Notes: generated by a model not told the origin, from the sequence alone. A stretch of 64,000 nt of DNA from an uncultured Actinomycetes bacterium (GCA_963733015.1 CAVTBO010000003.1:44635-108634), one strand, 5' to 3'; numbered from the stretch's first letter, positions 25,546 through 55,783 are shown. Numbers and translations: made by a program.

Positions 25546-25550
25546 CCGGC

Positions 25551-25571
25551 CAAGTAACAACTTGTTACTTG
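25551..25571. repeat. AT-rich palindrome P1: CAAGTAACAA-C-TTGTTACTTG
   Basis: Perfect 10+1+10 palindrome, 7/21 G+C, starts 5 nt after the TAA at 25543-25545. Confidence 0.9.
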
Positions 25572-25573
25572 CT

Positions 25574-25607: not shown

Positions 25608-25626
25608 TAGTGACAACTTGTTACTA
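25608..25626. repeat. AT-rich palindrome P2 (degenerate): TAGTGACAA-C-TTGTTACTA
   Basis: 8 of 9 arm pairs; overlaps the TAG stop (25624-25626) of the minus-strand FAD oxidoreductase gene. Confidence 0.8.
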
Positions 25627-27126
25627 GCGTCTGAGCAGCGGTCGGAGGAGCCGCTCGACGTCCCGGCGGTACGGGTCGCCGTCGAAGGCACGCACCGGGT
25701 GCGGGTCGAGCTCGTGTTCCTCGAGCTCCCCGCCCCGGCGTACGTAGACCGCCGGATAAATCGTCCCGTTCGCGCTCATCTCCACCGCGACGGCCGCCGC
25801 GTCCGGCCCGCCGCCGCCTCCGTCCACGAAGTGCTCGAGCGGCAGGATCCCCTCGTCCCTGATCCCGTCGTCGGAGAAGGAGAGCGCATGCGCGAGGTAG
25901 CCCTTCTGGATCCAGACCTCGGGCCCACACGCCAGCTCGTGGAGCAGCAGCGGGACGACCTCGTCGGCCCCGAGCGTCGGCTTCGGCTGCTCGAACCCGA
26001 GCCGCTCGCCGATGTGCCGCGCCAGCACGCGGGCGTTGTAGCGGAACCCGTTCACCGAGCTCGAATTGGCGGCGACGCCGTCCTTTGAGAGCCCGCGCGA
26101 GGCGATCGTGATGTTCCCGGCGAAGAAGATTCCGGGCACGGACACGCTCTCCCAGAACCGCGAGAGCGCGGGGACGCGATCGTTCATCACCGTGACGACC
26201 CCGAGCTCGCGGAGGTCGCACAGCGGCACCCTGAAGCCCGTCGCCAGGATCACCTCGTCGCCCGAGAAGACGAGGCGCCCGTCCCACGAGGTCGCGTCGG
26301 CCGTCACGCGGAACCCGTCGGCCGCGCGCTCGATCCCCACGATCGACCCGTCGACCACGTAGGTGCCGGGGCTGCCGCGCACGTATTCCTCGTACGGCTG
26401 GAGGTAGCGGGCGCGCAGCGGCGAGTGCGCGAGCACCGAGATGTCCACCGGGCGCGGCGAGACGAGCGTCAGCTCGCGCGCCCACGGCAGCAGCCCGTAC
26501 GCGAGCTCGAACGCAGAGTTGCGCTTTCCGACGATCACGACGCGCTTGTCGCGGTACGAGTCGGCCGACCCGGCGTCGGCGTAGTGGGTCGCATGCTCGG
26601 AGCCCTTGAGCGGGGGTGACCAGGGCTCTGTCATCCCGATCGCGAAGACGACGACCCGGCAGCGGTACTCCCCGTCGGTCGTCTCGAGGACGAACCCCTC
26701 GTCCTCGCGCCGCGTCCCGGTCCAGCGGCAGCCGTATCGGGCCTGGATGCCAGCGCGTTCGACGAAGTCGACGATCCCCGCCTCCATCTCGCCGCGCGCC
26801 GGCACGTCGAAGCTTCGATCCATCAAACCGGCGACCAGTCCGCGCGCTTCCGGCTCGTCCGCGACGAGGCTGTTGTTGTCGAAGCACTCGTACTCGCGCG
26901 TGTGCCGCTCCCACGGCGCGTCCGGCTTCGTCCAGCTGATCAGCCGCTCGAAGACCGGAAACCTTCGGAACATTCCGCCGGGGGCGTCGTCGGCGGAGAG
27001 CACGGCGTGATTGGACACACCCGCTCGAGACAGCGAGTAGCTCGTCTGGAGGCCGGCGGGACCGGTGCCGACGACAACGACGTCGTAGTCCCCCGGCGGG
27101 AACGGGGTCAGGAGCCGCTCATCCAT
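25624..27126 (-). CDS. FAD/NAD(P)-dependent oxidoreductase (flavin monooxygenase / pyridine-nucleotide disulfide oxidoreductase-like) with about 130-aa unassigned C-terminal extension
   Basis: Dinucleotide motifs DVVVVGTGPAG and VVIVGKRNSAFE; ATGF... late FAD motif. Confidence 0.75.
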   Translation of the reverse strand: MDERLLTPFPPGDYDVVVVGTGPAGLQTSYSLSRAGVSNHAVLSADDAPGGMFRRFPVFERLISWTKPDAPWERHTREYECFDNNSLVADEPEARGLVAGLMDRSFDVPARGEMEAGIVDFVERAGIQARYGCRWTGTRREDEGFVLETTDGEYRCRVVVFAIGMTEPWSPPLKGSEHATHYADAGSADSYRDKRVVIVGKRNSAFELAYGLLPWARELTLVSPRPVDISVLAHSPLRARYLQPYEEYVRGSPGTYVVDGSIVGIERAADGFRVTADATSWDGRLVFSGDEVILATGFRVPLCDLRELGVVTVMNDRVPALSRFWESVSVPGIFFAGNITIASRGLSKDGVAANSSSVNGFRYNARVLARHIGERLGFEQPKPTLGADEVVPLLLHELACGPEVWIQKGYLAHALSFSDDGIRDEGILPLEHFVDGGGGGPDAAAVAVEMSANGTIYPAVYVRRGGELEEHELDPHPVRAFDGDPYRRDVERLLRPLLRR

Positions 27127-52463: not shown

Positions 52464-53667
52464 GTGGCGGTGACCGAACTCGTTCCGACCGAAGAGATCC
52501 AGGAGCTGCGCGCTCGCTTTCGCGCGTTCATGGAGCAGCACGTCTATCCGAACGAGCGCGAGCTTCAGTCCGACGATGCGGACCTGATCCAGTCGCTTCG
52601 GGCAAAGGCGAAGGAGGAAGGGCTCTGGGCGCCGCACGTCCCGCCCGAAGCCGGCGGGACGGGCCAGGGCTTTCTCGCGTACGCGCACCTGAACGAGGAG
52701 ATCGGCAGGTCGACGTATGCGCAGCTCGTCTTCGGCTGCCAGGCGCCCGACGCGGGAAACGCGGAGATCCTGCACATGTTCGGAACCGACGAGCAGAAGG
52801 AACGCTGGCTGCGGCCGTTGGTCGCGGGCGAGATCCGCTCGTTCTTCTCGATGACCGAGCCGGAGGTGCCCGGCTCGGACCCGACGACCCTGCGGACGAC
52901 CGCGCGCCGGGACGGCGACGAGTGGGTGATCGACGGGCACAAGTGGTTCTCGTCCGGCGCAGACGGCGCGGCGTTCGGGATCGTGATGGCGGTGACCGAC
53001 CCGGATGCGGAGCCGCACCGCCGCGCATCGCAGATCCTGGTTCCCGCCGACACGCCGGGCGTCGAGATCGTCCGGCCGATACCCGTGATGGGCCATGCCG
53101 GAAGCGGCTGGTCGACTCACTGCGAGGTGTGGTACCGCGAGGTCCGGGTGCCGGTCGACAACACGCTGGGCGAGCCCGGCGACGGGTTCCGGATCGCTCA
53201 GAAGCGGCTTGGTCCGGGCCGGATCCACCACGTGATGCGCTGGCTCGGACAGATGGAGCGTGCGTTCGAGCTGTTGTGCTCGTACTCGTTGGAGCGAGAG
53301 GCGTTCGGCTCCCGACTGGCCGACAAGCAGACGGTTCAGAACTGGATCGCGGACTCCGCGGCGGCGATCCATGCGTGCCGTCTGATGACGTTGGATGCCG
53401 CGCACGGAAGATCGACGGGGCGACGAGGCTCGGGTCGAGGTCTCGGTGATCAAGTTCTACGCCGCCCAGGCGCTGCACGACGTGATCGATCGCGCGATCC
53501 AGGTGCACGGCGCCCGCGGTCTCACCGACGAGACGCCGCTGGCGGCGATGTACGCGACGGCGCGCGCCGCGCGGATCTACGACGGGCCCGACGAAGTCCA
53601 CCGCATGGTCGTGAGCCGGCGGATCCTGAAGGAGTTCGAGAAAGGCGGCACATGGCGGTTCTCGTGA
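52464..53667 (+). pseudogene. acyl-CoA dehydrogenase, ACAD10/ACAD11/LvaC-like, reading frame broken near 53405-53420
   Basis: N-terminal about 315 codons in frame of 52464 (QAPDAGN, MTEPEVPGSD, LGPGRIHH), C-terminal GDEARVEVSVIKFY...YDGPDEVH in frame of ORF 53395-53667. Confidence 0.75.
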
Positions 53668-54676
53668 AGACGAACAAGCGCGTCACGCTCGCGGCGCGGC
53701 CTCAGGGCTTTCCGGAGGACGCGGACTTCGTCCTGGACGAGGTCGAGGTGGGAGAGCCGGGCCCGGGCGAGGTGCTCGTGCGGACGCTCTGGGTCTCCGT
53801 CGATCCGTACCAGCGCGGCCGCATGAGCGAGGCACGCTCGTACGCGAAGAAGCTCGAGCTCGGCGATGTGATCACGTCGCAGTCTCTGGCGAGGTGGTCG
53901 TGAGCCAGGATGGGCGCTTTGAGCCCGGCGACCTGGTCGTCGGACAGCTCGGCTGGCAGGAGTATGCGGTCGCACGGGGTGGCTCGGTACGGATGGTGCC
54001 GGTGTTCCTCGACCCGCCGACGCTGGCGCTGCATGCCGTCGGCGCCACAGGCCTGACCGCCTACTTCGGGCTCCTGGACGTAGGGAAGCCGAAGCCCGGG
54101 GACACCGTCGTGGTGTCGGGTGCCGCAGGCGCCGTCGGGCAGGTCGTGGGGCAGATCGCGAAGCTCGCCGGCTGCCGCACGGTCGGGATCGCCGGCGGCC
54201 CGGACAAGTGCACGGACTGCCGCCTGTACGGCTACGACGAGGCGATCGACTACAAGGACGAGAACTTCCGCGAGGCGTTCAAGTCCGCCTGCCCGGACGG
54301 CGTCGACATCTACTTCGACAACGTGGGCGGCGGCGTGTCCGAGGGCGTCCACCGCCGTCTCAACATCGGGGCGAGAATCGTCATCTGCGGGCAGATCTCG
54401 CAGTACAACCTGGAGCGGCCGGAACCGACGTTCCATCCCGCGGCGCTGATCGTCTACCGCGCGCGGATGGAGGGGTTCCTGATCAACGACTACGCGCATC
54501 GCTTCGACGAAGCGGCAATGCGCCTGGCGCGGTGGGTCGCCGAGGGGAAGATCACGTGGCGCGAGGACGTGACCGAGGGGCTCGAAAACGCGCCATCGGC
54601 GTTCATGGGCATGCTGCGAGGCGAGAACCGCGGCAAGGCCCTGGTCAAGGTCGCCGACCGCGAGCAGGCCAAGTAA
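53652..54676 (+). pseudogene. NADP-dependent oxidoreductase (MDR, CurA/YncB/alkenal reductase-like), frame broken near 53886-53892
   Basis: MAVLVKTNKRVTLAARPQGFPEDADF...VDPYQRGRM...LGDVITSQS in one frame, GEVVVSQDGRFEPGDLV...GAAGAVGQVVGQIAKLAG... in the -1 frame. Confidence 0.75.
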
Positions 54677-54692
54677 CAAGTTGTTACTTGGC
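54668..54692. repeat. AT-rich palindrome P3: GCCAAGTAACAA-G-TTGTTACTTGGC
   Basis: Perfect 12+1+12 palindrome; contains the TAA stops of both convergent genes (54674-54676 plus strand, 54684-54686 minus strand). Confidence 0.9.
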
Positions 54693-54971
54693 TCGACGGC
54701 GGCGTCCGAGCTCGGGGACCCCGACCCCCGAGATGTGGTCGAGCACGGCTTCCGGCGGCCTGACGCGAAAGGCGACATCGGCAAGGACGCTCACGGTGCT
54801 GGGACCCCGGCGGATGCGCCGGGATTCGTGGACGAGTAGGCGAACGCGCTCGTAGCTCGGCCTGGCTACGCCGATTCGGTCGGCCTCACTGCCGACACGC
54901 CGACAGGTCTCGGCGATCGGAACGGAAGGACCGTCCGCCTTGACGAGCGCCTCGAGGAGACGGGGCGACAT
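54684..54971 (-). CDS. orphan 95-aa hypothetical protein bracketed by palindromes P3 and P4
   Basis: ATG 54971 (GTG about 54995 possible); GC3 about 79% and GC2 about 55% counted by hand, compatible with coding; no family recognised. Confidence 0.4.
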   Translation of the reverse strand: MSPRLLEALVKADGPSVPIAETCRRVGSEADRIGVARPSYERVRLLVHESRRIRRGPSTVSVLADVAFRVRPPEAVLDHISGVGVPELGRRRRAK

Positions 54972-55048
54972 TCGCGCGGCGAATCGTGGCACCACCCGAC
55001 TGTGCCTCGAAGAGGCGCGTGGAGAGTGCCAACTCAGCGCCGGATCTT

Positions 55049-55071
55049 CCAAGTAACAAGTTGTTACTTGG
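55049..55071. repeat. AT-rich palindrome P4: CCAAGTAACAA-G-TTGTTACTTGG
   Basis: Identical to P3 over 23 nt; 1 nt from the TAG of the SDR gene and 77 nt upstream of the orphan ORF ATG. Confidence 0.9.
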
Positions 55072-55072
55072 G

Positions 55073-55783
55073 CTAGAGCGGCGGGGCGACACCTTCCGCG
55101 CCCGGGACCCTGGGGCCCGGGATGCCACGGAAGCGATACGGCTCTGGCGGCCGGCCCGGCTGGACGATCCACGCCTCGCCGGTGCCCTCGCTGCGCGCCG
55201 CGAGGAGCACGGCGTCGGCGACCTCCTCCGCCCGGAGAAGCGGAAAGCCCGCCTCTTCGAGCGACGCCCGCAATTCGCCCGCGACCATCGGTGTATCCGC
55301 GAAGCCGGGGCACACCGCGTTGATCCGAATGCCGCGCTCTGTGAGCTGCGGCGCCACGGACCGAACGAAGCCGACGATCGCGTGCTTCGTCAGCGCGTAG
55401 ATCGGATCGCCTTCGACCCCCGTCAGTCCGGCGAGCGAGGCCGTGACGACGATCGCGTCGCCGTCCTCCAGCTCCCTGGCGAGCCGCCGGACCCCGTAGA
55501 CGACGCCGTCGACGTTGACGGCGACCACGCGCTGGTACTCCTCTGCGGTCAGCTCCGCAATGTCCGCCGTGCTCGTCGTGATGCCCGCATTCAGGCACGC
55601 CAGCTCCACGCGGTCGACGGACTGCCAGGCCGTCGGGTCGGAGACATCGAAGCCCGAGACGAGATCCAGCTCCAGCACCTCGACGCCTTCCCGCTCGAGC
55701 CGCTCGACGATCGCGCGACCGATTCCGCCCGCGGCGCCCGTGACGAGAGCAGTCCTAGGGAACAAGGACGACCTTGCCGACAT
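55073..55783 (-). CDS. SDR-family oxidoreductase
   Basis: TGAAGGIG, NAG, YALTKHA motifs; start ATG 55783 (TTG 55765 alternative). Confidence 0.8.
   Translation of the reverse strand: MSARSSLFPRTALVTGAAGGIGRAIVERLEREGVEVLELDLVSGFDVSDPTAWQSVDRVELACLNAGITTSTADIAELTAEEYQRVVAVNVDGVVYGVRRLARELEDGDAIVVTASLAGLTGVEGDPIYALTKHAIVGFVRSVAPQLTERGIRINAVCPGFADTPMVAGELRASLEEAGFPLLRAEEVADAVLLAARSEGTGEAWIVQPGRPPEPYRFRGIPGPRVPGAEGVAPPL

Follow-up and report, generated by a model that had tools for sequence, protein, structure and literature searches.

What relation does a short palindrome have to the small gene that two of its copies enclose, and how do further copies come to lie on the ends of other genes and within them? 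The question is raised by a stretch of 64,000 nucleotides (hereafter the window) from an uncultured Actinomycetes bacterium (GCA_963733015.1, CAVTBO010000003.1:44635-108634), in which two copies of the palindrome, P3 and P4, bracket a gene for a protein of 102 amino acids. The unit is a perfect palindrome of 21 bp with the core CAAGTAACAA-S-TTGTTACTTG and a centre of 1 nt. Since the window has a GC content of about 69%, this AT-rich sequence is conspicuous. A search allowing up to three mismatches returned four copies in the window, namely P1, the degenerate P2, P3 and P4, while dinucleotide shuffles of the window gave a chance expectation of zero. The bracketed region is organised as follows.

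53894-54676, plus strand: 3' part of a gene for an oxidoreductase resembling zinc-dependent alcohol dehydrogenase (Zn-ADH-like), its last two codons and stop lying within P3
54668-54692, no strand: P3, the downstream bracketing copy, sequence GCCAAGTAACAAGTTGTTACTTGGC
54684-54992, minus strand: small-protein gene, 102 amino acids, its stop being the TAA in the right arm of P3
54999-55004, minus strand: −10-like hexamer CACAGT, 6 nt before the GTG start of the small gene
55049-55071, no strand: P4, the upstream bracketing copy, sequence CCAAGTAACAAGTTGTTACTTGG
55073-55783, minus strand: short-chain dehydrogenase/reductase (SDR) gene, the last of seven co-directional minus-strand genes, ending 1 nt short of P4

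The sequence agrees with the original prediction made for this region as to the coordinates of P3 and P4, their identity over 23 nt and the distance of 380 bp between their centres. It had also been proposed that P3 provides Ala-Lys-stop to both of the genes converging on it, and both open reading frames (ORFs) do end in GCC AAG TAA, that of the plus-strand oxidoreductase at 54668-54676 in the left arm and that of the minus-strand small gene, with its stop at 54686-54684, in the right arm. The ORF map likewise places P4 1 nt past the stop codon (55073-55075) of the SDR gene closing the seven-gene run, as had been described; the centre of P4 precedes the start codon of the small gene by about 68 nt, and for this start we propose the second GTG, at 54992, by comparison with the N-termini of the family (MPxxAPRI...). 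What had been taken for an orphan ORF is a conserved gene with many homologues, and the prediction lacked the central feature of the locus: P3 and P4 enclose this conserved gene in an arrangement that is kept throughout its family.

One genome per species was scanned for the exact 19-mer AAGTAACAASTTGTTACTT. It was found at at least 118 loci, of which about 105 among the matches listed came from Gaiellaceae, Thermoleophilia or ‘Actinomycetes’ metagenome-assembled genomes (MAGs) with 64-74% GC. The source MAGs came from several groups and had been assembled from short as well as long reads. Pairs spaced 372-384 bp apart occurred, among the matches listed, at 16 loci including the window, and all 16 encoded a homologue of the window ORF (37-93% identity). 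With the exception of the most divergent (L013), these cassettes were syntenic, lying between Zn-ADH-like oxidoreductase and SDR/quinone-oxidoreductase genes. For distant family members, DNA from 80 metagenome loci was used together with single look-ups. Palindromes of the form GTAACA-N3-TGTTAC (up to two mismatches) stood on both sides of the small gene in 73 of the 74 family loci for which both flanks were available, the exception (L195) having the symmetric variant CCAAGTTGCAGTCTGCAACTTGG on both sides. Counted separately where sequence was available, the upstream copy was present in 81/82 loci and the downstream copy in 78/79; the background rate in the same loci was 3 matches in 253 kb. 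The members of a bracketing pair were 346-423 bp apart and, by inspection, showed no 11-bp phasing. At least 10 different genomic contexts were found for the cassette, three of which are represented among proteins with over 70% identity.

The palindrome sequence was conserved across proteins that are themselves only 35-45% identical. Three types could be distinguished by the inner triplet, namely ACAA-S-TTGT (window clade), ACAG-W-CTGT (most others) and ACAC-A-GTGT (L204 and L205). One and the same syntenic locus, with the gene between SDR and oxidoreductase, carried all three: the window has the first there, L121-125 the second and L205 the third. A change of type always affected both arms and both copies, and a flanking pair was always of one type; arms and copies thus change in concert. 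L195 and L143 had further symmetric variants. In L204 a type-C cassette (ACAC-A-GTGT, L204:9925-10363) lay about 6.5 kb from a dispersed type-G pair of copies, or doublet (ACAG-A-CTGT, L204:3367-3443), with a spacing of 55 bp, so more than one palindrome type can coexist in a genome. Type-C-like copies adjoined type-A copies in L015, L022 and L076. A simple recognition code relating the Arg or Gln after PSYE to the base at position ±1 was also considered; it held in 190 of 195 site counts, was broken by L206 and was rejected.

The small protein is basic, with an isoelectric point of about 11.6, and is predicted to be all-helical with five helices (pLDDT 85). Its family comprises 288 clusters at 90% identity and 378 representatives at 50% identity (E 1e-3 or better), nearly all of them stand-alone proteins of 60-185 residues. 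They share the invariant core R..RPSYExVR, in which P-S-Y-E-x-V-R is located at the start of a helix. The C-termini encoded by the homologous genes are of two kinds, ...RRRRAK and ...LRR. No significant match was obtained in Pfam, PHROGs, NCBIfam, the PDB sequence profile, or by Foldseek against PDB and BFVD; low-E PDB profile matches were to designed helical repeats and were judged spurious. An HUH motif and an acidic metal-binding cluster are both absent from the protein, which matches neither Y1 transposases nor any recombinase family. The family is an undescribed one, and the bracketed protein is probably DNA-binding. For four members (P0190, P0165, P0260 and P0225) the database gene calls read through the flanking palindromes, and the resulting artificial N- or C-terminal extensions contain QVTRCYL, PCNRLLLA or NVTVCYLA.

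In relatives, NACAGT, CATAGT or GACACT stands before the small-gene start at the same offset as the −10-like hexamer of the window. Its position 6 nt from the start codon suggests a leaderless transcript; a promoter scan of 54500-55250 with a simple sigma-70 consensus returned no match. The interval between the upstream palindrome and the hexamer (55021-55047, minus strand, in the window, and its equivalents in L121-L206) contains a further element. GGCAC or GGCGC is kept there about 8-10 nt after the palindrome in most family loci, and many have a second GGCAC or a CGTGAC element in the same interval. The motif might be bound by another protein or belong to the promoter.

Outside the cassettes the palindrome occurs dispersed in Gaiellaceae. 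Of 167 sites classified with our own heuristic gene caller (codon log-odds, trained on these loci), 63 lay between convergent and 42 between tandem genes, a single one between divergent genes, 47 inside genes and 14 at locus edges. Further copies at gene ends had been foreseen in the original prediction, and were found: among the 178 gene 3' ends flanking intergenic copies, the stop TAA was inside a palindrome arm in 43 and 0-5 nt away in 33 more, giving 76/178 with a copy overlapping or no more than 5 nt away. At least 16 matched blocks, amounting to at least 18 site groups, were found in one MAG, SMAG_U5975. Orthologous positions were occupied in 398 of 405 comparisons while the neighbouring DNA diverged, a figure biased by the choice of loci; copy numbers and occupancy rates in general are biased, the scan having been ascertained on exact 19-mers. 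Every half-site in 839 kb of high-GC loci was part of a full palindrome and none was solo, which makes the whole palindrome the unit. Conservation and complementarity ended at ±10 to 11, with S at ±11, and neither a GTAG or CGTC tag nor any conserved tetranucleotide was present at positions ±11 to ±16. An extended flank hairpin beyond the core was dropped as a candidate after counting gave a weak excess only at positions 11-13. The palindrome had no match in viral contigs and none in Rfam at a permissive threshold, and literature searches on a palindrome in Gaiella and on the six core sequences yielded nothing relevant.

Intragenic copies were always read in either of two stop-free frames, xSNN/KLLLx or QVTT/SCYL. 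PDB alignments placed such copies within real enzymes, among them PurL (two sites) and the interdomain linker of CoaBC, where the site lies inside the alignment to PDB 6tgv and is aligned on both sides. Site 2 of purL was present in three species, and in four the alignment showed an in-frame gap of 15-18 nt with few resident bases replaced; copies are thus gained and lost as discrete units, in line with the insertion-like behaviour that had been proposed. In a DUF6285-like gene, the palindrome takes the place of a resident stretch of about its own length. The comparisons of occupied with empty sites showed no target-site duplication.

The palindrome also replaces native C-termini. The core ...GENRGKALVKVA[D/E]R is common to the orthologous oxidoreductases. 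Those abutted by a palindrome end in xK-stop (EQAK, EHAK, ERAK, DQAK, EHPK, EQGK, SAGPRDGK or PSEPK), and those not abutted stop 15-350 nt short of the palindrome centre, in SG, GA, GG, RA or SERPA. The small protein follows the same pattern with its two endings, ...RRRRAK and ...LRR. As AK-stop never occurred without the palindrome, it is the element that sets these termini, and the suggestion that it creates gene ends is borne out by this alignment of orthologous oxidoreductases. The other possibility raised at the time, a modular terminator, finds no such backing. The palindrome lacks a U tract or T run and has an AT-rich stem, a terminator scan of 54500-55250 returned no match, and 47/167 copies are in frame within genes.

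Dispersed copies also form doublets, an example of which is found elsewhere in the window.

25550-25572, no strand: P1, the consensus copy in a dispersed doublet, 5 nt past the stop of a gene for a basic protein of 78 residues
25607-25627, no strand: P2, the degenerate member, TTAGTGACAACTTGTTACTAG, overlapping the stop of a flavin adenine dinucleotide (FAD) oxidoreductase gene (25624-27126, minus strand)

The centres of P1 and P2 are 56 bp apart and lie between convergent genes. The gene preceding P1 (25309-25545) encodes a very basic, low-complexity protein of 78 residues (MPSKRANVKNEKQYEKLKEKGMSKERAAKIANSPG...) with no Pfam match. Doublets were present in at least 20 independent genomic contexts, and their spacing is quantised, with classes at 55-56 bp (10 loci), 66-68 bp (8 loci) and 75-78 bp (8 loci) and rare spacings of 41/42, 48, 53, 103 and 122 bp. 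At a single orthologous locus the spacing was 55, 67 or 78 bp depending on the species. The palindromes themselves would form hairpins of −13 to −19 kcal/mol (z −3 to −4). Doublet interiors are not conserved and folded like shuffled sequence (mean z = 0, n = 41), the GC hairpin between P1 and P2 being exceptional at z = −3.5; the idea that a GC hairpin generally belongs to the element was accordingly rejected. The self-complementary GC-rich stretch reported next to P3 (54711-54732) is real, but its supposed mirroring of the hairpin at 25.6 kb is coincidental, since it is coding sequence of the small gene, encoding the conserved motif SGVGVPEL, and since doublet interiors are generally unstructured.

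Repetitive extragenic palindromic (REP) elements are palindromic repeats of 20-40 bp present in many copies per genome, and the REP-associated tyrosine transposase (RAYT) carries an IS200/IS605-type HUH/Y1 domain and is encoded by a single-copy gene with its cognate repeat on both sides. To our knowledge, REP-like repeats are poorly known outside Proteobacteria, and RAYT is the sole protein so far tied to them. Published REPs are mostly found in the gaps of convergent or tandem gene pairs, no more than 20 nt from stop codons, and sometimes supply the stop codon or sit in frame inside genes; they are often dimers with spacers constant in length and not in sequence, and the two published superfamilies have an unpaired GTAG or CGTC tag at one end (PMC3733652). 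The palindrome described here resembles them as a 21-bp repeat in many copies, at the low end for REPs, that lies near the 3' ends of convergent and tandem genes, supplies stops, and has in-frame copies and doublets. The small gene resembles that of a RAYT in being flanked by two repeat copies (73/74 loci) and in being mostly inherited in synteny (the 16 Gaiellaceae cassettes). On the other hand, the palindrome is without the GTAG/CGTC tag, is perfect, AT-rich and built around a 1-nt centre, and numbers tens of copies rather than hundreds, while the flanked protein of about 100 residues, with its five-helix prediction, is not an HUH/Y1 transposase. Given the missing terminal tag and the different protein, we do not file the system under REP/RAYT and regard it as a REP-like family whose associated protein is new and unrelated.

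Other known systems share single traits with it. Rickettsia palindromic elements (RPEs) are about 100-150 bp long, and we know of no dedicated protein for them. They lie in frame in protein genes and add residues to conserved proteins (PMC3733652). With in-frame copies in purL, coaBC and other genes (47/167 sites), the present palindrome shares this behaviour only, and no membership is claimed; its unit of 21 bp, or 7-8 residues, is unrelated to RPEs in length and sequence. The sites parS, matS and NBS, belonging to ParB, MatP and Noc, respectively, are perfect or near-perfect palindromes of 13-16 bp, present in few to tens of copies per chromosome and often in or at the ends of genes, and the small protein that binds each of them as a dimer is often encoded next to a site. 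We know of no case in which such sites are discrete inserted blocks or lie systematically on stop codons, and no sequence or fold relation of ParB, MatP or Noc to the small protein was detected. The stoperators of mycobacteriophage L5 are numerous dispersed sites in short gaps at gene ends, where the bound repressor blocks elongating RNA polymerase; they are asymmetric, 13 bp long, orientation-dependent and confined to the phage genome. A small protein with many dispersed gene-end sites is reminiscent of these, whereas the present palindrome is symmetric and absent from the viral contigs searched. As to MITEs (miniature transposable elements whose conserved non-coding core is enclosed by terminal inverted repeats and which come with target-site duplications), doublet interiors are not conserved and target-site duplications are missing from the occupied-versus-empty comparisons. 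DNA uptake sequences (DUS/USS) are short non-palindromic motifs, abundant singly and only sometimes paired as an inverted repeat; this identity was ruled out, solo half-sites being absent from the 839 kb searched. A palindromic operator of a dimeric DNA-binding protein would stand beside the gene of its regulator and co-vary with it; adjacency and concerted switches of type were observed here, and the covariation of residue and base is confounded by phylogeny and has one exception.

The explanation we prefer, and hold with moderate confidence, is that the palindrome is a duplex DNA site to which the bracketed protein binds in dimeric form. This is suggested by the perfect dyad with 10-bp half-sites, by the conservation, beyond pairing, of the sequence itself across such divergent proteins, by the concerted change of arms and copies, by the basic helical nature of the protein with its invariant motif at a helix start, and by doublets in which spacing is constrained and the interior is free. 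Each subunit of the dimer would contact one half-site (CAAGTAACAA), and the bracketing pair would serve for control or insulation of the gene encoding the protein. The site would have multiplied in Gaiellaceae, in a REP-like manner, to tens of other places, copies persisting only where they do little harm, that is, behind the stops of convergent or tandem genes, or in frame. In-frame survivors, read as ASNNLLLG or QVTTCYL, would occupy permissive protein segments. A copy meeting the frame as xxC-AAG-TAA would end the protein with Lys-stop, which is how P3 would come to terminate both converging genes. At the dispersed sites the palindrome may act as a roadblock or boundary or in nucleoid organisation, or the copies may be tolerated passengers or do nothing.

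Several observations weigh against binding by a dimer or against parts of this scheme. The centre of the upstream palindrome lies about 65-100 nt before the start codons of the family and not over the putative −10, and at this distance from the hexamer simple occlusion of the promoter is unlikely. The spacing of doublets increases in steps of 11 bp, in contrast to the 10.5 bp of relaxed B-DNA. The match between residue and base within clades (ER with A:T, EQ or QQ with G:C, QR with C:G) is broken by L206, and the covariation rests on about three independent switches and is confounded by phylogeny. Assignment of a helix-turn-helix (HTH) is weak, the best Foldseek matches being to winged-helix structures at E = 0.5-3 and the few matching Pfam HTH families all having E > 0.03. 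Clades other than Gaiellaceae show few dispersed copies in the limited flanks available, where dispersal rests on one doublet (L204), and the copy number is below that of classic REPs. We regard as rather improbable the more far-reaching idea of a second, independent REP-type intragenomic replicator, in which the palindrome would be maintained and copied by, or with the aid of, a dedicated non-HUH protein of about 100 residues enclosed by its two founding copies, and any new copy would take a fixed helical offset from an existing one, of 5, 6 or 7 turns of 11 bp each.

The distribution could also be explained if the sites arose in place by selection, with no copying involved, to serve an ordinary autoregulated transcription factor or nucleoid protein, comparable to ParB at parS or MatP at matS, in a functional network, for example of operon-end roadblocks. 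A universally bracketed gene, only tens of sites per genome, the retention of orthologous sites next to diverging DNA (398/405, subject to the bias of locus choice mentioned above) and a quantised doublet spacing suited to cooperative binding would all be expected of such a network. Yet a perfect AT-rich palindrome of 21 bp is unlikely to have originated repeatedly by point mutation in a genome of 69% GC, and site 2 of purL differs from its empty orthologues by a discrete block of 15-18 nt. Divergent sites, where regulators usually act, make up 1 of 106 intergenic ones, and 47 sites add or replace 7-8 codons within genes. We consider such an origin possible, though unlikely. A different view would take the palindromes as RNA hairpins with a role in ending transcription or in protecting the 3' ends of mRNA, the association with the small protein being incidental. 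Copies do lie directly behind the stops of convergent and tandem genes, the stems are stable (−13 to −19 kcal/mol, z −3 to −4), and REPs are believed to act in this way (PMC3733652). A hairpin, however, needs structure only, while here the sequence is near-invariant in distant lineages and flank complementarity stops at ±10-11. The absence of a U tract and of any terminator-like match, and the 47 copies inside coding sequence, also count against it, and neither the family-wide bracketing nor the quantised doublets nor the copy upstream of the small gene is explained, so that we hold it to be doubtful.

It is also conceivable that the small protein itself copies or moves the palindromes, as an analogue of RAYT with an unrelated fold that uses the invariant Ser-Tyr and arginines. 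The gene lies between two copies of a dispersed repeat, which is the RAYT layout (PMC3733652), P-S-Y and several arginines are invariant, and the cassette occurs in at least 10 contexts, including three among proteins more than 70% identical. This we judge very unlikely for an all-helical protein of about 100 residues without an HUH, Y1 or recombinase match or an acidic metal-binding cluster. In addition, its S-x-x-E pattern resembles a helix N-cap, and the occupied-versus-empty comparisons revealed no target-site duplication. Chance similarity or an assembly or adapter artefact, finally, is to be regarded as excluded: no match was expected by chance, and the element is found within one lineage in MAGs from short and long reads produced in many independent studies.

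The system described here is a REP-like repeat paired with a different, unannotated small protein in an abundant and largely uncultured soil lineage (Gaiellaceae, Thermoleophilia). This pairing is almost invariant over hundreds of family members, providing a candidate reader protein for such repeats and a first functional context for an orphan protein family. Protein C-termini are rewritten by the repeat, and essential enzymes, PurL and CoaBC among them, acquire 7-8 internal residues from it. For genome annotation, it accounts for spurious N- and C-terminal extensions (QVTxCYL, xSNNLLLx) and for common xK-stop endings.

The 19-mer AAGTAACAASTTGTTACTT was also present at at least five loci (L034, L038, L046, L077 and L111) of a low-GC Desulfobacula sp. 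MAG, frequently with a second shared motif, GCTGTGTCGTGTGYCAA, nearby. The copy in a Clostridiales MAG (L016:1165-1215) is placed between TTGACA and TATAAT in the manner of a classical operator. Sites of unrelated regulators with this core in common may account for these matches. At three further loci, from Gaiellaceae species (L003:668-1039, L062:2148-2519 and L032:2645-2970), the oxidoreductase stop and the downstream bracketing palindrome are set apart by about 300-350 bp of additional sequence; a minus-strand ORF, likewise ending in the palindrome, was called in it.

Upstream of P3, two adjacent genes of the window appear to be frameshifted (52464-53903). The first encodes an acyl-CoA dehydrogenase with residues 1-313 in one frame and the C-terminal part (53395-53667) in another. 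The second is the oxidoreductase gene that ends in P3, the N-terminal domain of which (about 53664-53903) is out of frame with the C-terminal part at 53894-54676. The counterparts of both are intact in relatives such as L205, with 400 and 339 residues, respectively, and the frameshifts are either long-read assembly indel errors or the mark of pseudogenes.

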